Below are positions 8,276 through 59,976 of a stretch of DNA of 64,000 bases, piece by piece (the stretch's first letter is position 1; the number at the start of each line of letters is the position of its first letter). A program made the translations under genes and the position numbers. The notes under the pieces were generated by a model. The model was not told the DNA's origin. It worked only from the letters and a program-made list of their open reading frames with translations, and searched no databases. The stretch is from an uncultured Chlamydiae bacterium (lineage in GTDB: Bacteria > Chlamydiota > Chlamydiia > Chlamydiales > Parachlamydiaceae), in assembly GCA_963754655.1 (NCBI GenBank), contig CAVWGN010000001.1, positions 2,880,001 to 2,944,000 of the forward strand. Direction: 5' to 3'.

Positions 8276-8494
8276 TTTCTAACTTTCATTTACTTGGCAA
8301 TAAAGTCGGCATCAACGAATGAAAATCTTATAAAGGACGAGCCACGTCATTAACTCACAATCTGTTGATGTCGTGGCGTTAGTTACAGGCTGTCGAACTA
8401 AGAAAATGAAGTTTAGGCTAAATCGCTTCAAATGAGAGAATTTGCATTGGTTGGGTTGGTTTTGCAGGAAATCCAAGCGCCAAAAGGTTGACTG

Positions 8495-8540
8495 TATTCC
8501 ATTACATTAGTTTTTGCCTATTGGGACAGTTTTAAATCCC
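8495..8540. repeat. Degenerate left end of family-D MITE-like palindrome
   Basis: GTATTCCATTACATTAGTTTTTGCCTATTGGGAC matches the ends at 14865, 27968 and 40926. Confidence 0.8.
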
Positions 8541-8830
8541 TATGCGTTAAGGTTAAGAGATGAACGTAGGCTACGCGACGCATTCAGTCGCCCGCCGCTT
8601 CGCTCTGGGCTCTAGGTGAGGGGTTGAGGACCCACCGTTCGGTCGCCCTCTGGGCTCGGTCACGGTGGGCTATTACCAGTCGTCCTCCGGACTCTAGCGG
8701 CAATGTAGAAGTCATTGAATGTTAGGTAAGGTCTTTGTTAATGCTGTTAGAATGCTAGTCAAGGCGTCTTGATCCTGCCGCTAGAGTCCGGAGGACGACT
8801 GGTAATAGCCCACCGTGACCGAGCCCGAAG

Positions 8831-10154
8831 AGTTGTGTCAAGTATTATGTGCAAATTGGTAAGAGATCTCATTAGGTTAAGCTATTTTTTCAACGCTCAG
8901 TTGTTCTTGTTTCTTTTGCTCTTTTAATAGATCCATATTTAAATATCTTTTATCTACCCATCCCTCATGAACCTCAACTGCAATTGCTAATATCAATCTT
9001 AAGCAACTCTCTTCATTTGGAAAAATTCTAATAACGTGTGTTCTTCTCTTAATTTCTTCATTTACTCTCTCGAGTAAGTTCGAACTTTTTAAATGCTTAT
9101 GATGTTGTTTTGGAAACTGGTAAAACGTTAATGTCTCAAAAATATTTTCCTCCACCCATGTACATAACTTTGGATACTTCATCATCCACTTCTCTAGCCA
9201 CATATTCAAATCTGTTTTGGCTTCTTTAATATCCTTTCTATCATAGATCCATCGCAATTCTTGTAAGCAATCGTCGTTTGCTTTTCTTGGTAAATAATCA
9301 ATTGCATTTCTTAAGAAATGAACATAACATCTTTGCCAAGGGATTTGATAAAATACTTCCATTATCGCTTTCCTAAGCCCTGCATGCTCATCACTAATAA
9401 TCAACTCAACTCCTATTAATCCTCTTTCTTTCAATCTCAATAGAAAATCTTTCCAACTATTGTGAGATTCTCGATTTGCAATTTCCACTGCTAATACTTG
9501 CCTGTAACCTTCTCCATTCACACCTACTGCAATTAATATAGCCTGCGATTTTACTATCCCATTTTCTCTAACTTTCTCATAACGAGCATCTACAATTAGA
9601 TAAGGATAAACTTCTGTCAATTTTCTATTTGCAAACTGCTTTAAGTCCTCGTCCAAGCTCTTATTGATGTTGCTTATTGTCGTCGCTGAAAATTCATGTC
9701 CGCAAAGTTCTTCTGTGATTGCCTTCACTTTCCTGGTTGATACTCCTTGGACATACATTTCTGCTAGAGCTGATACTAATGCTTTTTCCGATCTTTCATA
9801 TCGTTCAAAAAGCTCGGTAGAAAACATTCCCTCTCTGTCTCTTGGTACTTTTAGCTCTATATTGCCTATTCGCGTCACTAAGTGCCTTGTATAATAACCT
9901 GCTCTATAGCCTTTTCTTTCTTTGGATCTTTCACTCTTATTTGCTTCCAAAGTCTCGATCATTTCGGCTTCTAAAAAATTTTCGAGAGCAGTTTTCATAA
10001 GAGACTTCATTAAATCAACATCTTGTTCAATAACTTCTTTAGATAATTTGTTTTTCTCAATAGAATACTTTTTGGTCATGGTATACCTCTTTTTGTAGTT
10101 AATAAGAGATCATCTTACCATGACCTTTTTTTGCACATAATTTTTTACACAATC
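8831..10154 (-). mobile_element. IS256-family insertion sequence (1324 bp)
   Basis: Imperfect TIRs AGTTGTGTCAAGTATTATGTGCAA / TTGCACATAATTTTTTACACAATC; 8-bp TSD GCCCGAAG at 8823-8830 and 10155-10162. Confidence 0.95.
8877..10079 (-). CDS. IS256-family (Mutator) transposase
   Basis: VPRDR, GVSTRKV, VDARYEKVR, ISDEHAGL, QRCYVHFLRN, LERVNEEIKRR. Confidence 0.96.
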   Translation of the reverse strand: MTKKYSIEKNKLSKEVIEQDVDLMKSLMKTALENFLEAEMIETLEANKSERSKERKGYRAGYYTRHLVTRIGNIELKVPRDREGMFSTELFERYERSEKALVSALAEMYVQGVSTRKVKAITEELCGHEFSATTISNINKSLDEDLKQFANRKLTEVYPYLIVDARYEKVRENGIVKSQAILIAVGVNGEGYRQVLAVEIANRESHNSWKDFLLRLKERGLIGVELIISDEHAGLRKAIMEVFYQIPWQRCYVHFLRNAIDYLPRKANDDCLQELRWIYDRKDIKEAKTDLNMWLEKWMMKYPKLCTWVEENIFETLTFYQFPKQHHKHLKSSNLLERVNEEIKRRTHVIRIFPNEESCLRLILAIAVEVHEGWVDKRYLNMDLLKEQKKQEQLSVEKIA

Positions 10155-10229
10155 GCCCGAAGGGCGACCGAACGGTGGGTCCGGCACCCCCAAATAGAGC
10201 CCAGAGCGAAGCGGCGGGCGACTGAATGC

Positions 10230-10758: not shown

Positions 10759-13700
10759 CTACTCATTTAAAGTGATAGTAAAGGTTCTTTGAGTAGAACT
10801 TCCGCAACTGGTAGTTACCCGAATAGTAAACGTATAAGTTCCCGGTGAACCACTTGGTTCATTTTCTCCACTAGCTGTAATAGTCCCAGCAAATAACCCA
10901 GGAAAATTAGTTGGAGACAGAATAAGTCCCGTAGGTAAACTTCCTGAGACTATAGCAAATCTAAAGGGAGCAGATGCAGTTGTGGATATTTCAACAAACT
11001 GATAATAACCGCCACCCACTGTGGCATCGGGTAATGTCTCTGTCCTGAAGCTAACGGCTGAACAGGTTACTGTTAATGTTGTAGAACCCGAGACTCCTGC
11101 TTGTGTCGCTGTAATGGTTGTACTGCCTGCATTGTTGCCCGTAGCTGCTCCTTTATCAGCTGCAGCATTAGAAATATCTGCAACTCCTGTATTGGAAGAA
11201 CTCCAAGTCGCTTGAGTTGTGAGATCTTCTGTTGTCCCATCACTGAAAGATCCTGTTGCTGTGAATTGAATCGTCTCTCCACCCAGAATGCTTGGAGTAG
11301 CTGGCGTCACTGTAATGGATTCTAAAGTAGCTGGTGTGACAGTTAAGGTTGTCGATCCTTTCACAGCTCCTAAAGAGGCTTCAATTGTTGTGGTGCCTTC
11401 ATGCAATGTTTGAGCGAGTCCTTGACTGCCAGAAGCATTAGAAATCTTTGCAACGTTTTGATCGGAAGAATTCCAAGTCACTTGAGTTGTAAGATCTTTT
11501 GCGGTCCCATCACTAAAAGATCCGGTTGCTGTGAATTGAATAGTATATCCAAGAGCAATACTTGGATTAACGGGTGTCACTGTAATTGTATCTAAGACAG
11601 CAGGTGTCACAGTTAAGGTTGTCGATCCTGTCACATTTCCTGAAGAAGCCTTAATTATTGTGGTGCCTACATCCAATGTTTGAGCGAGTCCTTGACTACC
11701 AGAAACATTATAAATCACTGCAACGTCTGAATTGGAAGACTCCCAAGTCACTTGGGCTGTAAGATCTTGTGTTGTCCCATCACTGAAAGATCCGGTTGCT
11801 GTGAATTGAATCGTACGTCCAAAAGCAATACTTGGATTAGCTGGTGTCACTGTAATTGATTCTAAGACAGCTGATGTCACAGTTAAGGTTGTCGATCCTG
11901 TCACATTTCCTGAAGAAGCCTTAATTATTGTGGGGCCTACATCCAATGTTTGAGCGAGTCCTTGACTACCAGAAACATTATAAATCTCTGCCACCTCTGG
12001 ATTGGAAGACCCCCAAGTCACTTGAGTTGTGAGATCTTCTGTTGTCCCATCACTAAAAGATCCGGTTGCTGTGAATTGAATCATACGTCCAACAGCAAGG
12101 CTTGGATTAAAGGGGGTTACTGTAATTGATTCTAAGACAGCTGATGTCACAGTTAAGGTTGTTGATCCTGTTACATTCTCTGAAGTGGCACTAATTGTTA
12201 TGGTATCTACATCCAATGTTTGAGCGAGTCCTTGACTGCCTGCAGCATTAGAAATGACAGCAACTTTTGAATTAGAAGAATTCCAAGTCACTTGAGTTGT
12301 AAGATTTGCCGTTGTCCCATCACTGAAAACTCCTGTCGCTGTAAATTGAACAGTACGTCCGACAGCAACGATTGGATTAAAGGGCGTCACTGTAATTGAT
12401 TCTAAGACAGCAGAAGTGACAGTTAAGGTTGTCGATCCTGTTACATTCTCTGAAGTGGCACTAATTGTTGTAGTTCCTACAGCTACTCCTGTAGCCTCTC
12501 CTTGACCGCCTGCAGCATTAGAAATATCTGCAACTGCTGAATTGGAGGAACTCCAAGTCACTTGAGCTGTAAGATTTTGCGTGGTTCCATTACTGAAAAC
12601 TCCTGTCGCTGTAAATTGAACAGTACGTCCAACAGTAACGCTTGGATTAAAGGGTGTCACTGTAATTGATTCTAAGACAGCTGATGTCACATTTAAGGTC
12701 GCCAATCCTGTCACATTCCCTAAAGCTGCAGTAATGGTTGTGCTTCCTACAGTTATTGCTATAGCCAGCCCTTGACTGTCAATGACAGCCACTCCTGGAT
12801 TAGAAGAACTCCAAGTGACTTGGGTTGTGATATTTTCTGTTGTACCGTCGCTGAAAATCGCTGTTGCTATAAATTGAAGAGTATACCCGGCAGCAATGCT
12901 TGGATCAATAGGTGTGATATTAATGGAGGTCAGCACAGCATTTGTCACTGTCAATTGTGTCGAGCCCGATATTCCATTTAATATTGCTTTAATCGTTGTC
13001 GTGCCAGGACTTAAGCCTGTAGCCAGTCCCTTAGAAATCACAGCAACAGCTGGATTAGAGGATTCCCAATTGACGCTATTGGTAAGATTTTCTGTTGTTC
13101 CATCGCTAAATATCCCAGTGGCTGTAAAGGCAAGTTGATATCCGGCAGCAAGTGTCGAAAACTCAGGATCTATTTCAATGGAGACCAGCTGAGCAGTTGT
13201 CACTGTCAATGTGGTCGACCCTGATATCCTATGTCGCTCTCCAGATGAGCGATGTGTTTCAGAGGTATGACTCCTATCCGAGGAGCTGCTACTATATCTT
13301 CCAGATATTCCACCTACTGTAGCTTCAATTACAGTGGTACCTGGACTTAGGCCAGTGGCTAACCCCTTACTTCCCGGCTCATCAGAAATCGTTGCGACTG
13401 TTGGATTCGAAGAAGACCACTGAACCTTATTTGTCAAATCGACTTTTGAATTATCGCTAAATATGCCTGTTGCCGTAAATTGAATGGTAAAATTAACTGC
13501 AACCACTGGATCAATTGGTGTCACTTCAATTTTAGTTAAAACAGGATGGAACACGCGCACCTTAGCTCCGATAAACCTAATGATAGCGGCAGCGGATTGA
13601 TTGCCCGCTTCATCTACGCTTACAATATAATAAGTATAAATTTGATGTTTCTTGCGATTGTGATCTCGAAATCTTAATTTTTGATCGGCTGAAATGGTGG

Positions 13701-13983
13701 CTGCCAGCTCTGTTAAGTTTGAATTGCGATAAATTTTATAGGCAACAGGGGGTGTTCCTTCAGAAGGAGATCGCCAAAAGATTTCATTGATCAGATCGGC
13801 TTGAGAAGCAAATCGATTTGCAATCTGTGCGCCTCTTAAATCAGTTGGAGGTAAAAGCAAAGAAGGAGTTGTTTGTGCATATAAGGAGCCAAAGGAATGG
13901 AAGGCGGACAAACCATGTAAAACAATCAAACATAGAGTCAACAAAAGGAATCGACTCGATCTATAATTAGATTGTCTATACAT
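10759..13983 (-). CDS. Secreted adhesin-like protein: FN3-like N-domain, 9 Big_2 (Lig/intimin-like) repeats, C-terminal putative Ig domain
   Basis: Signal peptide; nine 'L.SI.VTP...QFTATG.FSDGT..DLT.QVTW.SS' units, the later ones with a 270-bp DNA period; C-terminal LP.ATVG..Y...GSLPTGL. Confidence 0.9.
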   Translation of the reverse strand: MYRQSNYRSSRFLLLTLCLIVLHGLSAFHSFGSLYAQTTPSLLLPPTDLRGAQIANRFASQADLINEIFWRSPSEGTPPVAYKIYRNSNLTELAATISADQKLRFRDHNRKKHQIYTYYIVSVDEAGNQSAAAIIRFIGAKVRVFHPVLTKIEVTPIDPVVAVNFTIQFTATGIFSDNSKVDLTNKVQWSSSNPTVATISDEPGSKGLATGLSPGTTVIEATVGGISGRYSSSSSDRSHTSETHRSSGERHRISGSTTLTVTTAQLVSIEIDPEFSTLAAGYQLAFTATGIFSDGTTENLTNSVNWESSNPAVAVISKGLATGLSPGTTTIKAILNGISGSTQLTVTNAVLTSINITPIDPSIAAGYTLQFIATAIFSDGTTENITTQVTWSSSNPGVAVIDSQGLAIAITVGSTTITAALGNVTGLATLNVTSAVLESITVTPFNPSVTVGRTVQFTATGVFSNGTTQNLTAQVTWSSSNSAVADISNAAGGQGEATGVAVGTTTISATSENVTGSTTLTVTSAVLESITVTPFNPIVAVGRTVQFTATGVFSDGTTANLTTQVTWNSSNSKVAVISNAAGSQGLAQTLDVDTITISATSENVTGSTTLTVTSAVLESITVTPFNPSLAVGRMIQFTATGSFSDGTTEDLTTQVTWGSSNPEVAEIYNVSGSQGLAQTLDVGPTIIKASSGNVTGSTTLTVTSAVLESITVTPANPSIAFGRTIQFTATGSFSDGTTQDLTAQVTWESSNSDVAVIYNVSGSQGLAQTLDVGTTIIKASSGNVTGSTTLTVTPAVLDTITVTPVNPSIALGYTIQFTATGSFSDGTAKDLTTQVTWNSSDQNVAKISNASGSQGLAQTLHEGTTTIEASLGAVKGSTTLTVTPATLESITVTPATPSILGGETIQFTATGSFSDGTTEDLTTQATWSSSNTGVADISNAAADKGAATGNNAGSTTITATQAGVSGSTTLTVTCSAVSFRTETLPDATVGGGYYQFVEISTTASAPFRFAIVSGSLPTGLILSPTNFPGLFAGTITASGENEPSGSPGTYTFTIRVTTSCGSSTQRTFTITLNE

Positions 13984-14092
13984 AAACTTTCTCCTTAAGT
14001 TGTCAAATGCACATTTTACGTTTAATATTCCTATGCATATATTTTTTTTTAAATTTTTACTAGTGAAAAGAGACGTCGAGTTGCAACATCAA

Positions 14093-14821
14093 TTACATTT
14101 TAAAATCTGTTCCTAAATAGGAGCACTTTGCGCTTTCATTATTTAAGAGCTCATTGACATTTCCCTCAAAAGCGACTTTTCCTTCCTGTATCAAATAGCT
14201 TTTATCAACAACGGAAAAAATTTCGCGTGCATTATGATCGGTAATCAGGATGCTAATTTGTTTTTGAGCCAAAAGTTGAATCAGATGTTTGACATCTTGA
14301 ATAGACAAGGGATCAATATTGGCAAAGGGCTCGTCAAGCATGAGAAAAGAAGGCTTAGTCACTAGGGCTCGCGTAATTTCGACACGTCGCCGTTCCCCAC
14401 CAGATAAAGCAGCAGCTTTTTTTTTGGCTAAATGCTCAAGGTGTAATTCTCCTAACAGTTCTTCCAAACGTTGCTTGCGTTCTTGCTTAGATAATGGCAA
14501 GCTTTCTAGAATACAAAGAATATTTTCTTCTACTGTCAATTGGCGAAAAACAGAAGATTCCTGAGCTAAGTATCCCATTCCCATGCGCGCTCGTTTATGC
14601 ATAGGAATATAGGTAACATCTTGATCGCAAAAAATGACTTGCCCTTGATCAGGACGAATAAGGCCTACAGTGATATAAAAGGCTGTCGTTTTACCTGCTC
14701 CATTAGGTCCAAGAAGGCCAACGATTTCCCCTTCTTGTACTTTAAAAGACAAGCCATTCACTACTGGCCGGCCTCCATAACTCTTAACCAAATTTTGAAC
14801 TTCTAAACAAACAGGACCCAT
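14093..14821 (-). CDS. lptB: LPS export ABC transporter ATP-binding protein
   Basis: GPNGAGKT, LSGGERRRVEI, LDEPF, ITDHN. ATG at 14821 preferred because the longer start lies in a repeat. Confidence 0.95.
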   Translation of the reverse strand: MGPVCLEVQNLVKSYGGRPVVNGLSFKVQEGEIVGLLGPNGAGKTTAFYITVGLIRPDQGQVIFCDQDVTYIPMHKRARMGMGYLAQESSVFRQLTVEENILCILESLPLSKQERKQRLEELLGELHLEHLAKKKAAALSGGERRRVEITRALVTKPSFLMLDEPFANIDPLSIQDVKHLIQLLAQKQISILITDHNAREIFSVVDKSYLIQEGKVAFEGNVNELLNNESAKCSYLGTDFKM

Positions 14822-14864
14822 TCTTTTTTGATTTTGCACCTTTTCGCCTCCTTCTGGATGATTG

Positions 14865-15467
14865 CTAGTACTCAACCACATTAGTTTTTGCCTATTGGGA
14901 TTGCTTCACAGGCCCGGTTGGGGATGCGATGATTCTCTTGTAGTCCTTCAGACTACATGACGGGGGCTAATCTAGCCCAGGGCATCGCCCCATACGCATC
15001 AAGCTAAGAGAAGAGCGTAGGCTACGCGACGCCTTCAGTCGCCGCGCCGCTTCGCTCTGGGCTCTAGGTGAGGGTTTTGAGGACCCACCGTTCGGTCGCC
15101 CTCCGGGCTCGGTCACGGTGGGCTATTACCAGTCGTCCTACGGACTCTAGCGGCAATGTAAAAGCCATTGAATGCTATTTAAGGCGTTCTGATAATGCCG
15201 CTAGAGTCCGTAGGACGACTGGTAATAGCCCACCGTGACCGAGCCCGGAGGGCGACCGAACGGTGGGTCCTCAAAACCCTCACCTAGAGCCCAGAGCGAA
15301 GCGGCGCGGCGACTGAAGGCGTCGCGTAGCCTACGCTCTTCTCTTAGCTTGATGCGTATGGGGCATCGCCATGGGTTAGATTAGCCCTCTTCATGTAGTC
15401 TGAAGGACTACAAGAGAATCATCTCATCCCAACCGCGGGGCCTGTGAAGCAATCCTAATAGGCAAAA
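14865..15467. repeat. Composite ~600-bp palindrome: family-D element with a family-A element at its centre
   Basis: Outer arms ~14886-14980 and ~15371-15467 are imperfect inverted repeats enclosing the inner element. Confidence 0.93.
14991..15360. mobile_element. Family-A MITE (370 bp) with IS231/IS4-like ends carrying an inverted REP-like doublet
   Basis: 165-bp arms (14991-15155 and 15196-15360) appear perfectly inverted around a 40-bp spacer; ends CATACGCATCAAGCTAAG; flanked by GGGCATCGCCC and GGGCATCGCCA. Confidence 0.85.
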
Positions 15468-15501
15468 GTTGGCATGGTTCAAAAATTCATGTCACTGATG
15501 A

Positions 15502-17028
15502 CTAAGGAAAATGCTGCTTTAATTGTTCAAGCTCTTTCTCAATGAATGTAAAACGGACGTCACCTAATCCTTGAATAATCTCTTTCTTAGTTGTGGTATC
15601 ATGTATCACCTTTAAAGAGGGAGCGCTCATCTGAACATTATTCACTTTATCAAAAAAGAGCACGCGATTGCCATTTGAACCCTTTAAGACCATTTCTTGC
15701 TGTTTAGGAAAATATTCTACAACATCTGCTAACGCATAATGAAGAACAGATCCAGTTTCTTCAACATGTCCATCAAAGCGATTCATAAGACGAACATGTC
15801 CCTCTAATATCGTTCTTGCTGGAACAAGTTGTCGTTCCTCCCAAGTATAGTGAATACGAACACGATCTGCATACATTTCCCCTAACACATCCTCAATATA
15901 AACTTGCAGCTCTTCGTTATTTTTTCCTGATATGTCTTTTAGACCTTGAAAAACCATTTCTTGACGCTCATGATCAATGCTAAAAAACCCCGGACAATGG
16001 ATCCTATGGGTATTTCCTTTTTGAGTATCGGTATAATCAATGTATGTATTTTCAGGAGATTGAAGGAATTTCAATACTCTTTTATCATTCACTATGGCTT
16101 GTGAGATTAAGAGCTCATGATCTGTATGGATATGCAAACTACCATTTTGGGTAATATTCACATCTCCTGTTAATTGTAAGGTGTGCTGTTGCTCATCCCA
16201 GGCAAGTTCATTAGCTGAAAATTCCAACGTTTGTACAGGGCGCCCTTCTCGACGCATATAAAGCATTCCTTTCGGCTGGGTCAGCCACAGCTTGCGTTCC
16301 CTTGTATTCACTTGAATCATTTGAGCAGACAAGTGATCTCCATTGACATTTGTCATTTTGCAAACAGGTAGATCTCCTCTTACGGTCAGAGTTAAAATCC
16401 CTGCTAAACTCCCCTTGTTCACTTCAGCCGGCAGGCGTTGATAAACAGCATGATCTGCTAAAAGTAAATGATCCTGATTATAGCGAACACGTACATTATG
16501 ATTAGCCTCAATTTGTCTGACGAGAATTTTAGCAGCTGGTGAATCAGTTGCTGACTCTCGCAGAAGATCAAGCGTCATTTGACTGCTTTTGAGCTCAACA
16601 GGGGGTCTTGTCTTTTCTCCACTTTCCCCTTCCTCTCCCTTATTAAAATAAGTCACATCCGGCCAGGCAGCATTTCCTAAAAAAATCCCCTGCATATTGG
16701 CATAATCAACTTCAGCCTGTTGGCAATAAAGCCTCCCACCTTCTTTAAGTTCGATCTGCACATCATCATTGATTTTTAGAAAACCTAACTTGTTTTTTTT
16801 ATCTATATTGGAAGAAGACTGTACTGATAGACGACGAGCAGAAATTTGCCCCAAGCTATGTTGGACGATCACTTGTCCAACTAAAATAATTTGTTTACCA
16901 TCATATTGAGCTTCTCCAGAATTGACAACCATTGAATCCTCTTTTTGCAAAAGAGCATTCTCTGCATGTAAAAGGGAAAATAAAAATGCGATTTTGAAAT
17001 ACCACAAGCGGAAGAGTCTTTTTATCAT
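15502..17028 (-). CDS. OstA/LptA-like beta-jellyroll LPS transport protein
   Basis: Signal peptide, repeated 'L.G.V.I/V' strands, position between kdsA and lptB. Confidence 0.65.
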   Translation of the reverse strand: MIKRLFRLWYFKIAFLFSLLHAENALLQKEDSMVVNSGEAQYDGKQIILVGQVIVQHSLGQISARRLSVQSSSNIDKKNKLGFLKINDDVQIELKEGGRLYCQQAEVDYANMQGIFLGNAAWPDVTYFNKGEEGESGEKTRPPVELKSSQMTLDLLRESATDSPAAKILVRQIEANHNVRVRYNQDHLLLADHAVYQRLPAEVNKGSLAGILTLTVRGDLPVCKMTNVNGDHLSAQMIQVNTRERKLWLTQPKGMLYMRREGRPVQTLEFSANELAWDEQQHTLQLTGDVNITQNGSLHIHTDHELLISQAIVNDKRVLKFLQSPENTYIDYTDTQKGNTHRIHCPGFFSIDHERQEMVFQGLKDISGKNNEELQVYIEDVLGEMYADRVRIHYTWEERQLVPARTILEGHVRLMNRFDGHVEETGSVLHYALADVVEYFPKQQEMVLKGSNGNRVLFFDKVNNVQMSAPSLKVIHDTTTKKEIIQGLGDVRFTFIEKELEQLKQHFP

Positions 17029-27967: not shown

Positions 27968-28130
27968 CTAGTACTCCACCACACTAGTTTTGTGTATTTA
28001 GATTGCTTCAAAGCCCCGCGGTTGAATTGGCGTAAGTGGTCAATATTAGCAATATGGACCCACTTACGCCAATTCAACCGCGGGCTTTGAAGCAGTCCCA
28101 ATAGGCAAAACTCATGTAATGGAATACTAG
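27968..28130. repeat. Family-D MITE-like palindrome (163 bp) between parE and parC
   Basis: CTAGTACTCC...GGAATACTAG termini; arms inverted to CAATTGGCGTAAGTGG-like / CCACTTACGCCAATT core. Confidence 0.9.
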
Positions 28131-41044: not shown

Positions 41045-41441
41045 TAGGGTGTTCATTTTGTGCAAAAAATGAGCTTTATTTTTCACAATAATTGGCATAG
41101 TTAAATTGAAGGTCGCATGTTTATGCCGTCCTTTCAGGACTCGATGTCTTTTTGATAGAACCCAGGCCTCCGCTTCGCTGCGACCTGGGCTGTAACATGA
41201 CAGCCCTTCAGGCCTTAACAAAAAGATGATTTAGGGACTATAGAAGAGGGACTTAAACATCTCTTGTTAAGGCCTGAAGGGCCGTCATGTTACAGCCCAG
41301 GTCGCAGCGAAGCGGAGGCCTGGGTTCTATCAAAAAGACATCGAGTCCTGAAAGGACGGCATAAACATGCGACCTTCAATTCAACTATGCCAATTATAGT
41401 GAAAAATAAAGCTCATTTTTTTGCACAAAATGAACACCCTA
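41045..41441. mobile_element. Family-B MITE-like palindrome (397 bp) carrying an inverted REP-like doublet
   Basis: Arms 41045-41221 and 41264-41441 are near-perfect inverted repeats; ends TAGGGTGTTCATTTTGTGC; second copy at 48532-50638. Confidence 0.9.
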
Positions 41442-48272: not shown

Positions 48273-48377
48273 TCACCTTATGCAAGTGAGGTCAAAGAAT
48301 CAGTGATACCCCTTAAATAACCCAATAGCTTGATTTGTTTAATCGCCTGAAAGGCTTTAAATAAAATAGCCCAGGGA

Positions 48378-48522
48378 CGGGACTTAACAAAGAACTGTTT
48401 TGGGCTTGATGTTTTTCGCGTCATTTTCGAGAAATATGCCTCTAAAGCCTTTTACAGGCGTGGTGCTGTTAAATTGACGCGATGAATATCAAGCCCAAAA
48501 AACAGTTCTTTGTTAAGTCCCG
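48378..48522. mobile_element. 145-bp MITE with 9-bp TSD
   Basis: TIRs CGGGACTTAACAAAGAACTGTTTT / AAAACAGTTCTTTGTTAAGTCCCG; GCCCAGGGA at 48369-48377 and 48523-48531. Confidence 0.9.
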
Positions 48523-48622
48523 GCCCAGGGATAGGGTGTTCATTTTGTGCAAAAATGAGCTTTATTTTTCACAATAATTGGCATAGTTGAATTGAAGGTC
48601 GCATGTTTATGCCGTCCTTTCA

Positions 48623-50084
48623 GGGACAATTGCAGAATAAACAATAAATTATTTTAATTTACCACTTTCAAAAAAAGGCTCCTTAATATAGTCTAGATGT
48701 AGAAAAACCGTCTTAAACTATACAAGGAACCGAAAAATGTTCAGAGAAAAATTATCGCAAATGTGGAATAACGTACAGTCTACTCTTTTTCCTGATTTAA
48801 TCAAACGAACTCATGAACTCTGCCCTGAGTATAAAAAATTAGTATCAATTCTGGAACTTGTTCGTATTGAAAGTCATATTCCGCGATCCTTCAAATTAGG
48901 AAGGCCACCAAAAGATCGCATCGCAATGGCTAGAAGTTTTATCGCAAAAGTAGTCCTAAAACAACCTTACACTAAACAAATTATTCGCCTGCTAAACCAG
49001 GATGAACAATTGAGGATTATTTGTGGTTGGGAGGCAAATCATAAAATTCCTTCTGAATCTAAATTTTCTAGAGCTTTCAAAGAATTTAGCCAAATAACCC
49101 TTCCGGATAGGGTTCACCAAGCATTGGTTAAAGAATTTTACAAGGGAGAGATCATAGGACATGTGATAACAGATTCTACACCCTTAGAAGCACGTGAAAA
49201 ATCATTAAAAAAACCATGTGCAAAAACACGTCGAAAAGAAAAAGACAAAGAAAGAAGAAGAATGAAAAGTGCTGGAGAACCAAATCTACGTCAACAGCAG
49301 TTGAATGAACCAGATCTTCGAAAAATGGTAGAACATCTTCCTATAGCATGTGACAAAGGCATGAAAAGAAATCCTCAGGGATTTCACATTTTTTGGAAAG
49401 GCTATAAGTTGCATACTAATGTTGATGATAATGGAGTCCCTTTGGCTGCAATTGTCACATCTGCATCGTGTAATGACTGTGAAGTTGCAATTCCTTTATC
49501 TCTAAAAACAAGCAAGGTAGTAACTAATTTGTACGATTTAATGGATGCAGCTTACGATTATCCAGAAATCAAGGAATTTAGCCGATCCCTTAATCATATA
49601 CCAATTATCGATCAGTGTTCGCGAAGTGCAGCTCAAAAAAAGGCAAAAATGGAAGAGAAAAAAAGAAAAACTCTTTTAAATTTTAAAACAGCTGAAGAAA
49701 AGAGGTACGCAGAGCGATTTCCCAAAGAATCCTTTAATGCATTCTTTAAGGACTATTGTGGAGGACATAGGATATATTACAGAGGATATCAGAAAGTCTC
49801 TTGCCATGCATTATTTGGAGTATTAACAGCGGCCGCTATGATGTTATTGAAATTCACTTCCTAAAGATCGATTAAATTTCAAAGATTGACAGTATCTTCT
49901 TACGTTACCCCCTGCCAAAATTAGATCAATTTTTAAAAAAATTCAAAAAATTCGAATGTTTTGCATAAAAGTGTTTTTTTTTCATTAAAACTTAGTCGTC
50001 TAGAATCGATTCTTTTCGATCTCAGGTACAATTGACAGAAAAAAAATCGCAGTATAACACGCTAAATAATTCTGCAATTGTCCC
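48623..50084 (+). mobile_element. DDE insertion sequence (~1462 bp; IS5/IS1182/ISNCY-like)
   Basis: 16-bp TIR GGGACAATTGCAGAAT / ATTCTGCAATTGTCCC; TSD TTTCA at 48618-48622 and 50085-50089 (or a 17-bp TIR with TTC). Confidence 0.92.
48737..49864 (+). CDS. DDE transposase (DDE_Tnp_1-like)
   Basis: IPSESKFSRAF, DSTP, GYKLH, TSAS..D, LMDAAYD; enclosed by TIRs. Confidence 0.9.
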   Translation: MFREKLSQMWNNVQSTLFPDLIKRTHELCPEYKKLVSILELVRIESHIPRSFKLGRPPKDRIAMARSFIAKVVLKQPYTKQIIRLLNQDEQLRIICGWEANHKIPSESKFSRAFKEFSQITLPDRVHQALVKEFYKGEIIGHVITDSTPLEAREKSLKKPCAKTRRKEKDKERRRMKSAGEPNLRQQQLNEPDLRKMVEHLPIACDKGMKRNPQGFHIFWKGYKLHTNVDDNGVPLAAIVTSASCNDCEVAIPLSLKTSKVVTNLYDLMDAAYDYPEIKEFSRSLNHIPIIDQCSRSAAQKKAKMEEKKRKTLLNFKTAEEKRYAERFPKESFNAFFKDYCGGHRIYYRGYQKVSCHALFGVLTAAAMMLLKFTS

Positions 50085-50154
50085 TTTCAGGACTCGATGT
50101 CTTTTTGATAGAACCCAGGCCTCCGCTTCGCTGCGACCTGGGCTGTAACATGAC

Positions 50155-50482
50155 GGCCCTTCAGGCCTTAACAAAAAGATGATTTAGGGACTATAGAAGA
50201 GGGACTTAAACATCTCTTGTTAAGGCCTGAAGGGCGGGCCCTTTAAGCCTTAACAAAAGGACTATTTATGGACTATAGAAGAGGGACTTAAATCTCTCTT
50301 GTTAAGGCCTGAAGGGCCGGCCCTTTAAGCCTTAACAAAAGGACTATTTATGGACTATAGAAGAGGGACTTAAATCTCTCTTGTTAAGGCCTGAAGGGCC
50401 GGCCCTTTAAGCCTTAACAAAAGGACTATTTATGGACTATAGAAGAGGGACTTAAATCTCTCTTGTTAAGGCCTGAAGGGCC
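50155..50482. repeat. Four tandem 82-bp units, each an inverted hairpin pair with a fixed spacer
   Basis: Units start at 50155, 50237, 50319 and 50401: GGCCCTTYARGCCTTAACAA...TTGTTAAGGCCTGAAGGGC(C/G). Confidence 0.95.
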
Positions 50483-50686
50483 GTCATGTTACAGCCCAGG
50501 TCGCAGCGAAGCGGAGGCCTGGGTTCTATCAAAAAGACATCGAGTCCTGAAAGGACGGCATAAACATGCGACCTTCAATTCAACTATGCCAATTATTGTG
50601 AAAAATAAAGCTCATTTTTGCACAAAATGAACACCCTAGTCCAGGGATCATTGCTATCCCTTAAATAACCAAATAGCTGGATTTGT

Positions 50687-59094: not shown

Positions 59095-59976
59095 GGTCAA
59101 GTTGACCGCTTTTAAAACAATGTTCGGACATGAAATAAATATTTATACGTAAATTAAAATATGATAAAAATTTTAATTTCTTGCTATATCGCGGAGCGAT
59201 AAAAGTGGGAAGCCCCGCATGCAGCGTAAGGCCGGTAGGCCTGAAGCGGAATGTGGGGCTGCCAAACCAAATTCTTAAGTCGCGGAAGCGACGACAGAGG
59301 GAGATATGACTCATTCCTATCGGCTGCATTATTTCCATCTTATTTGGTCAACCAGACAGCGACTCCCTCATATCGCTCCTGATGTTCAATCCCGTCTTTA
59401 TCCCTATTTGGGAGCTATTACACGGAATCATTCAGGAAAACTGTTAGAGATCGGAGGAATGTCAGATCATGTTCATTTATTAATAGAGCTTTCTTTACTC
59501 GATAAATTTTCTCATTTTATCAGAGATCTAAAAGCATCTTCCTCTCAATGGATTCATAAAAATTTTCCCAATCTCCATGATTTTGCCTGGCAAGAAGGCT
59601 ATGGATCTTTTTCCGTAAGTTATTCAGCTCTACAAGATGTACAGAAGTACATACAAAATCAAGAACAACATCATGCAACTATGTCATTTAAGGATGAATA
59701 TCTTAAATTCTTGAAACATCATCATGTAAAATATGATGAAAGATTTGTATTGGGATGATCACATTCACTATCCTTACGCTGCTCCCGCAGCTTAATGATC
59801 TTTTGGATACACCCCCACATTCCGCTTCAGGCCTACCGGCCTTACGCTACATGCGGGCTTCCCACTTTTATCGCTCCGCGATATAGCAAGAAATTAAAGT
59901 TTTTATCCTGTTTTAATTGACGTATAAATATTTATTTTATGTCCGAACATTGTTTTAAAAAGCGGTCAAGTTGACC
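59095..59976. mobile_element. Y1/HUH nuclease locus enclosed by ~164-bp inverted arms (family C)
   Basis: 59095-59258 is inverted relative to 59813-59976 with few mismatches; both outer ends carry GGTCAAGTTGACC. Confidence 0.9.
59306..59758 (+). CDS. tnpA: IS200-type Y1 (HUH) transposase-like protein, no tnpB
   Basis: HLIWSTR, DHVHLL (HUH), LKASSS, FAWQEGYG, KYIQNQ (catalytic Tyr); GAGGGAG RBS. Confidence 0.95.
   Translation: MTHSYRLHYFHLIWSTRQRLPHIAPDVQSRLYPYLGAITRNHSGKLLEIGGMSDHVHLLIELSLLDKFSHFIRDLKASSSQWIHKNFPNLHDFAWQEGYGSFSVSYSALQDVQKYIQNQEQHHATMSFKDEYLKFLKHHHVKYDERFVLG

Follow-up and report, generated by a model that had tools for sequence, protein, structure and literature searches.

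A probable non-autonomous IS4/IS231-type element enclosing REP-like hairpin repeats in a Parachlamydiaceae genome

Introduction

The target consensus of the insertion sequence IS231A is GGG-N5-CCC. Ends of the IS231 subgroup have the consensus CAT-------AA--TAA (CAT-7-AA-2-TAA; Table 1 of PMC2266710), and the sections of PMC2266710 and PMC6199540 consulted describe 10-12-bp duplications for IS231 and MIC231 and the movement in trans of elements that lack a transposase. A target of the form GGGG-N6/7-CCCC is given for IS186 in the consulted part of PMC5009759. Repeats of the REP class are defined, in the consulted part of PMC6006769, by a GTAG/GTGG tetranucleotide 0-2 nt 5' of a hairpin; the same source reports that subclass 1.2 generally lacks typical IS200 end structures. 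Insertion of REP dimers in longer palindromes is described in PMC3733652, and MITEs and REPs are treated as separate classes in the pages of PMC3184786 consulted.

Here we examine a locus at which these classes meet. The window is the whole 64,000-nt stretch of DNA that was analysed (contig CAVWGN010000001.1, positions 2,880,001 to 2,944,000, forward strand), from an uncultured member of the Parachlamydiaceae whose assembly (GCA_963754655.1) comprises 3.16 Mb in two contigs and is rated 96.7% complete. Positions are those of the window unless a contig is named.

Results

A multicopy palindrome with IS231-type ends

At the centre of a stack of nested repeats between two LPS-export genes (Table 1) lies a gene-less, non-autonomous element at 14991-15360. 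A sequence-only reading of this DNA had proposed a 370-bp element with inverted arms here, and we confirm it, the arms measuring 164 bp each with no differences between them and a 42-bp spacer separating them. Both ends are CATACGCATCAAGCTAAG (18 bp), and the flanks, GGGCATCGCCC and GGGCATCGCCA, form an 11-bp direct repeat with one mismatch. The element holds no ORF of 80 aa or more, and it is short, non-coding, multicopy and bounded by terminal inverted repeats, as MITEs are. Across this genome 103 loci match it, including 11 two-ended copies with intact ends, so it is no chance structure. The whole element was not found in 40 relatives, three of which have partial matches to its cargo.

Table 1. 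Features of the nested locus and of a second copy of its cargo (window coordinates)
Feature	Position	Strand	Remarks
Second cargo doublet, decayed IS231-type ends, inside outer-shell family	8493..10229		split by IS256 element
lptB, downstream neighbour	14093..14815	-	TIGR04406, 347 bits, cut-off 240
Outer shell, left end	14865..14920	+	starts at CTAG; high-copy end of another non-autonomous family
Host: left half of type-A REP-like repeat (other than the cargo)	14921..14990	+	
Left copy of 11-bp target duplication	14980..14990	+	GGG-N5-CCC hairpin half
Non-autonomous IS4/IS231-type element (MITE)	14991..15360		370 bp, one long palindrome
Left 18-bp terminal inverted repeat	14991..15008	+	14/18 identical to IS231B end, 12/18 to IS186A end
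Cargo, three-hairpin REP-like repeat, left copy	15026..15154	-	homologue without these ends in a congener
Asymmetric 42-bp spacer	15155..15196		conserved among copies, in either orientation
Cargo, three-hairpin REP-like repeat, right copy	15197..15325	+	
Right 18-bp terminal inverted repeat	15343..15360	-	
Right copy of target duplication	15361..15371	+	1 mismatch
Host: second type-A half, facing the first	15361..15430	-	
Outer shell, right end, decayed	15431..15504	-	reaches stop codon of upstream gene; boundary inferred
LptA/LptC-like gene, upstream neighbour	15502..17028	-	TIGR03002/TIGR04409 weak, below cut-off

A larger palindrome surrounds the element (arms 14921-15155 and 15196-15430, 97% complementary), and the segment 14880-15475 has a folding energy of -362.5 kcal/mol (z -48.7). 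Excision had been said to restore the centre of a host palindrome. The larger palindrome is real, but the search for an empty site flanked left and right by the same host half found none, BLAST giving no match across the reconstructed junction in this genome. What had been taken for a host palindrome consists of two halves of one repeat type that face each other, and no pre-existing palindrome of that form is matched in the genome.

The window end agrees with the IS231-subgroup consensus at every position (as tabulated in PMC2266710). We surveyed the end by exact match in public genome, metagenome and viral collections and obtained at least 247 loci and at least 77 distinct two-ended elements, of which at least 23 are 1.3 kb or longer, at least four intermediate and at least 50 shorter than 700 bp; viral contigs yielded one single end. 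Among the matches listed, all 23 full-length elements bounded by this end contain IS4 transposase matches, and end-bearing loci occur in Chloroflexota, Planctomycetota, Acidobacteriota, Methylococcales, Desulfobacterales, Cyanobacteria and Parachlamydiaceae. Two cognate transposases that were tested passed the IS4 model NF033592 (191-239 bits, cut-off 115), and the nearest annotated plasmid proteins of one from locus L068 include IS231B and ISBce2, at about 31%. Cognate transposases are mostly 24-49% identical to one another, yet the end is common to all. The fit to the consensus, the resemblance to the IS231B end and the IS4 transposase genes bounded by the same end elsewhere together bear out the earlier assignment of the ends to the IS231 type. 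The YREK tyrosine is present in nine chlamydial-family elements, IS231B, IS186 and six public elements, absent from 17 public elements and unreadable in two.

Within the family to which the window belongs, the end occurs with at most one mismatch in 20 of 60 other genomes (reversed-pattern control, none), and a cognate transposase was matched in seven of the 60. The search of this genome for an IS4/IS231 transposase with the same terminal repeat, proposed by the sequence-only reading, came back empty: no cognate transposase was detected by family scans, by tblastn with the sequences of 11 cognate proteins (best E 0.15) or by an HMM built from seven (best E 0.52). The element family looks orphaned in this genome. 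The view that a DDE transposase is moving it in trans is therefore to be read in the past tense: cognate DDE enzymes exist elsewhere, but none was found here.

Target hairpins, duplications and arm homogenization

The element at 14991-15360 lies within the loop of a REP-like hairpin. Counting ends within two mismatches, 26 of 37 adjoin one half of this hairpin, CCAGGGC-NNN-GCCCTGG (background 0.14%), and 20 of 37 match GGG-N5-CCC at five or more of six positions (background 0.17%), in agreement with the target that had been read from the window alone. Intact empty copies of the hairpin number 85 in this genome, in other flank combinations. The GGGC..GCCC flanks were also considered as ISAs1-like ends and rejected, given these 85 empty hairpins and the three unrelated elements that adjoin them at different offsets. 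Host repeat type A matches the 3' flank of the Y1 genes C1:2542121 and C1:2544251, and type-A doublets retain the last codons of a Y1 gene.

The IS4-family elements resident in this genome, one IS50-like and one broken, have ends unlike that of the MITE. The IS50-like element is present as two intact copies (C1:2679884-2681357 and 1896595-1898084) and fragments, with a 9-bp repeat in the same hairpin loop; its transposase frame is open (NF033590, 279 bits). The broken IS4 (C1:144681-146153) is likewise inserted in this loop, with a 10-bp repeat.

An 11-bp direct repeat is kept in three of the 11 two-ended copies, namely that of the window and those at C1:1149099 and C1:2324898, the latter two having one and no mismatches, respectively, and non-inverted flanks. 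The other eight have no direct repeat and show inverted or mixed flanks: six carry one and the same host half left and right (a D/D pattern) and may descend from one insertion, and in the remaining two the halves differ and the loop is inverted or shifted. That most other copies lack the 10-12-bp duplications partly goes against the sequence-only reading by its own refuting condition, although the behaviour of the arms can explain it. In eight copies the two arms differ at 3.1 positions within a copy and at 16.9 between copies, both counts being inflated by one gappy region, and 66 non-consensus columns are common to both arms as against 25 that differ. The low divergence within copies indicates that arms are being homogenized, a process that can extend into the flanks; the inverted and mixed flanks of eight copies are in line with strong arm-to-arm homogenization. 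Loss of repeats by recombination and adjacent deletion is documented in the consulted part of PMC11708052.

Among the public two-ended elements listed that have usable flanks, 36 of 71 have direct repeats, compared with 25 of 4970 mismatched flank pairs, and 35 have none. The 36 repeats are bimodal in length, with 24 of 10-11 bp, one of 9 bp, none intermediate and 11 of 19-21 bp (L009, L032, L040, L041, L052, L168, L192, L198, L199, L202 and L255). All 11 long duplications begin with GG and finish with CC, often covering a whole hairpin, and one short family has both lengths, 11 bp (L234) and 21 bp (L192 and L198). The full-length elements with 20-21-bp repeats all lack the YREK tyrosine (five of five), whereas those with 9-10-bp repeats have it; because the five lie in one part of the tree (FastTree, 24 elements), they amount to one observation rather than five.

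The cargo repeat and its relation to Y1 genes

Each arm carries a repeat with three small hairpins, although a single cargo arm folds no better than its shuffles (z -1.0 and -0.2). Of 87 cargo arms in this genome, 74 lie inside IS231-type ends (22 intact and 52 decayed; background 3.9%), which favours the proposal that such ends spread the cargo; the 13 arms without ends look truncated. Homologues of the cargo lie free of these ends in a congener and two family members, and within the same ends in the congener G001 (L311).

As a multicopy, extragenic inverted doublet with a spacer, the cargo resembles REPs and REPINs, whereas by inspection it has no GTAG/GTGG tetranucleotide at the hairpin foot, as the definition consulted in PMC6006769 has it; 'REP-like' is a fair description and strict 'REP' is not. 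The REP-like doublet of the sequence-only reading accordingly stands as an inverted hairpin doublet but not as a canonical GTAG-REP with a RAYT gene, the genes here scoring as IS200-like and of subclass 1.2. The genome has nine Y1_Tnp matches and six genes of the subclass 1.2 type, four of which are followed immediately at their 3' end by a repeat family. The Y1 genes carry the subclass 1.2 motif Y---Q--HH (as described in the consulted part of PMC6006769), and those tested passed the IS200 model and fell below the cut-off of the RAYT model. After the stop codons of the Y1 genes at C1:395846, 2542121, 2544251, 2802252 and 2429452 lie different three-hairpin repeat families.

A match to the inner 17 bp of the cargo lies in the 3' flank of Y1 gene C1:2429452, which is thin evidence, and in the relative G064 the repeat that the same ends enclose there matches the flank of that genome's Y1 gene (82% over 72 bp); no match between cargo and Y1 flanks was found in G071 (two of nine Y1 loci examined) or G001 (two of two). 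From its position the cargo may be an HUH substrate. No Rfam family scored above cut-off across 14000-16500, where only sub-threshold miRNA hairpin models appeared. A sibling three-hairpin repeat of this genome matches Acido-Lenti-1 (RF01687) at 148 places, 11 of them above the gathering score. Elsewhere in the window, a subclass 1.2 Y1 gene (59306-59758) lies between inverted hairpin repeats (59214-59261/59810-59857), with an additional 106-bp inverted repeat pair flanking it, the whole locus spanning 59110-59960.

The same ends around other hairpin repeats

The short public elements (at least 50) fall, among the matches listed, into 36 families, none of which joins that of the window; 32 of 50 interiors fold at z < -3 (12-25 shuffles each), and no similarity was found between interiors of short and full-length elements. 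In the relatives G064 and G071, the same ends enclose different repeats, among them the class targeted in this genome. In G045, another member of the Parachlamydiaceae, a palindromic doublet was found free (three loci examined), inside elements of about 370 bp with these ends (three loci), and also in 11 IS4 elements of 1,863 bp, nearly identical to one another and with an open frame of 466 aa, where the doublet occupies the 3' end. At the level of sequence, this is direct evidence that a DDE element can carry hairpin cargo of this kind.

The G045 IS4 elements (C11, L268-L278) insert in GC-rich hexamer tandem repeats. Direct repeats of 10 bp flank seven of their nine measurable copies, a count to be read with the hexamer-repeat target in mind, which favours such matches. 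We rejected the idea that this long IS gave rise to the MITE: its last codons include the decayed left end of a MITE, so the IS more likely absorbed one. At L081:2501-3692, a true RAYT gene (NF047646, 203 bits) has an IS231-type left end on one side and a 176-bp MITE on the other; it was rejected as a RAYT gene carried between the ends, as the inner end closes the 176-bp element on its own.

Nesting in an outer shell

The window copy itself sits within a CTAG-flanked outer shell. In three of three congeners, the whole stack is missing from the corresponding gene gap, and the aligned ends of lptB and the LptA/C-like gene are only 36-60 bp apart. The start of lptB called by the ORF finder (14881) falls within the outer shell (14865-14881) and is probably spurious. 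A palindrome of about 600 bp between two genes of an LPS-export operon could plausibly affect expression of lptB.

Across the genome, 15 matches to the cargo have decayed ends directly inside CTAG-flanked outer ends, and six of these are closed at about 495-500 bp. The second doublet in the window (Table 1) is split at about 8830-10154 by an intact IS256 element (400 aa; NF033543, 381.5 bits). A 375-aa DDE transposase (L257, C1:8077-10128), present in about 10 copies, lies inside repeat doublets and a CTAG shell; its best models, IS1182 and IS5, all score below cut-off. Additional palindromes in the window, long or nested and belonging to other repeat families, occur at 41064-41421, 48367-50646 and 27968-28130, and positions 10759-13983 encode a protein of 1074 aa that has about nine tandem repeats of Ig-like appearance and no NCBIfam match.

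Discussion

We are fairly confident that the window element is a non-autonomous IS231-subgroup MITE that was copied in trans by a DDE enzyme since lost, and that its copies were later homogenized and re-amplified within an outer shell. A three-hairpin doublet associated with a Y1 gene would initially have come to lie between two IS231-type ends, by an entry route of which neither the comparison of short with full-length elements nor that in G045 gave a sight. A transposase of the IS231 type, whose full-length source would by now have gone from the genome, probably then copied the unit to new sites; the ends, junctions and duplications argue for this step, and we infer the copying by a lost enzyme from them. 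This enzyme would have preferred GG(G)...(C)CC targets, found here mostly in the stem-loop of a second abundant REP-like repeat, and its insertions would have left duplications of 9-11 bp. The long palindrome would thereafter have evened its arms, template switching or conversion being the likely means of the homogenization observed, while deletion within a host doublet, from one of its hairpins to the other, would have produced facing host halves; arm homogenization and host deletions together would account for most duplications having been erased or inverted. Finally, as their sequences show, older copies decayed at the ends and were re-amplified inside the outer CTAG-flanked shell.

The strongest competing explanation, which we regard as unlikely but which deserves weight, is that most copies carry their IS231-type ends as fossils and that IS4-type insertions were few, the window copy and the six D/D copies having moved as larger palindromes by means of the outer shell or recombination. 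The 15 decayed-end matches within the CTAG shell, with six closed at a similar length, speak for this, as do the enclosure of the window copy in such a shell, the absence of the stack from all three congeners and the flank pattern common to the six D/D copies. Against it, intact ends abut at least six host halves (A, B, C, D, E and F), for which several independent insertions are needed, and the window ends match the widespread end perfectly. This explanation is compatible with an IS231-subgroup MITE copied in trans.

Rather less probable is that the 11-bp repeat in the window is no true duplication, and consists of halves of different hairpins joined by deletion. Both flanks are of type A and the genome has no empty A/A site; moreover, hairpins of this class almost always have the same loop triplet or the complement of it, and as the host loop is essentially two-state a direct match could come from two different hairpins. 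The left junction tells against such a joining, since it has the base preceding the stem and the loop triplet of the right-hand hairpin as that hairpin reads in its native orientation, two features that depart from the usual type-A reading in the way a true duplication predicts.

Spread in the manner of REPINs, with the cargo hairpins as substrates of a Y1 HUH enzyme and IS4-like ends as passengers, is very unlikely. The nine Y1_Tnp matches, the six subclass 1.2 genes, four with a 3' repeat family, and the 17 bp of cargo common to one Y1 flank would suit it; junctions exactly at the CAT end, repeats of 9-11 bp and a fixed target are a DDE signature, the cargo lacks GTAG/GTGG at the hairpin foot, and only a few cargo arms (13 of 87) lack the ends, these arms appearing truncated. 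We give least credence of all to a resident IS4-family driver, either the IS50-like element with its open frame or the C1:145 kb IS4 before it was broken, since both do insert in the same hairpin but have ends unrelated to that of the MITE, duplications of 9 and 10 bp and proteins that resemble none of the cognates.

Beyond the copied MITE itself, we tentatively suggest, as a reading that is possible rather than probable, that the IS231-type clade acts as a DDE shuttle of HUH-associated hairpin repeats and contains a sub-clade with a structure-guided stagger of 19-21 bp. If so, an 18-bp end would have stayed nearly invariant while the clade targeted hairpin repeats and its miniature elements repeatedly captured them, and a share of the spread usually credited to Y1 enzymes would be DDE-driven. 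The sub-clade without the YREK tyrosine would cut two helical turns apart and duplicate a whole hairpin, and structure-guided target capture of this kind would be undescribed for IS4.

REP-like repeats and MITEs, treated as separate classes with separate enzymes, are here linked by one end sequence. That one end targets hairpin repeats, carries them and nests in shells helps to explain the layered palindromes of repeat-rich genomes. With a single 18-bp end, intact cognate transposases and defined targets, the system is testable, both for how much REP spread is HUH-driven and for whether an IS4 transposase sets a 10- or 20-bp stagger by target shape.

Comparison with known systems

Each ingredient of this locus is already known, from MIC231, from insertion sequences that target REPs and from REP dimers in longer palindromes. 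The literature searched, to which ISfinder and subscription journals did not belong, contained neither the end sequence nor REP-filled IS4 MITEs or 19-21-bp IS4 duplications; these ends may already be catalogued in ISfinder, in subscription journals or in the supplement to PMC2266710.

The closest described system is IS231/MIC231, which, in the parts of PMC2266710 and PMC6199540 consulted, shares with our element the end consensus and the presence of extra DNA between ends. As described there, MIC231 elements are 0.7-3 kb long, have coding passengers and come nearly all from Bacillus, whereas the element here is 370 bp, non-coding and filled with a palindromic repeat doublet, and its end is common to many phyla. 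The coding passenger of MIC231 and the conserved CA region by its left end are absent here, and the sequence following the end is unlike that of IS231B. IS186 of E. coli has a related end (Table 1), a target of a G-run and a C-run and, at IS186A measured from the CAT end, a 10-bp duplication; it is autonomous, and the consulted part of PMC5009759 describes neither repeat-hairpin targets nor REP-filled derivatives. ISRm22, another IS4-family element (PMC1525189, in the sections consulted), likewise inserts at the symmetry axis of a repeated palindrome and, as here, has some copies that have lost their matched repeats by recombination, but it is autonomous, belongs to the IS4Sa subgroup, makes 6-bp repeats and has no REP cargo.

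REPINs and REP doublets, as presented in the consulted parts of PMC3733652 and PMC6006769, resemble the cargo in being inverted hairpin doublets with a conserved spacer whose related repeats flank Y1 HUH genes. Unlike the REPIN/RAYT system, our locus has no GTAG foot, its genome has IS200-like genes of subclass 1.2, and the doublet is bounded by DDE ends and duplications. Acido-Lenti-1 (RF01687) matches the sibling three-hairpin repeat and matches neither the cargo nor the window locus above cut-off.
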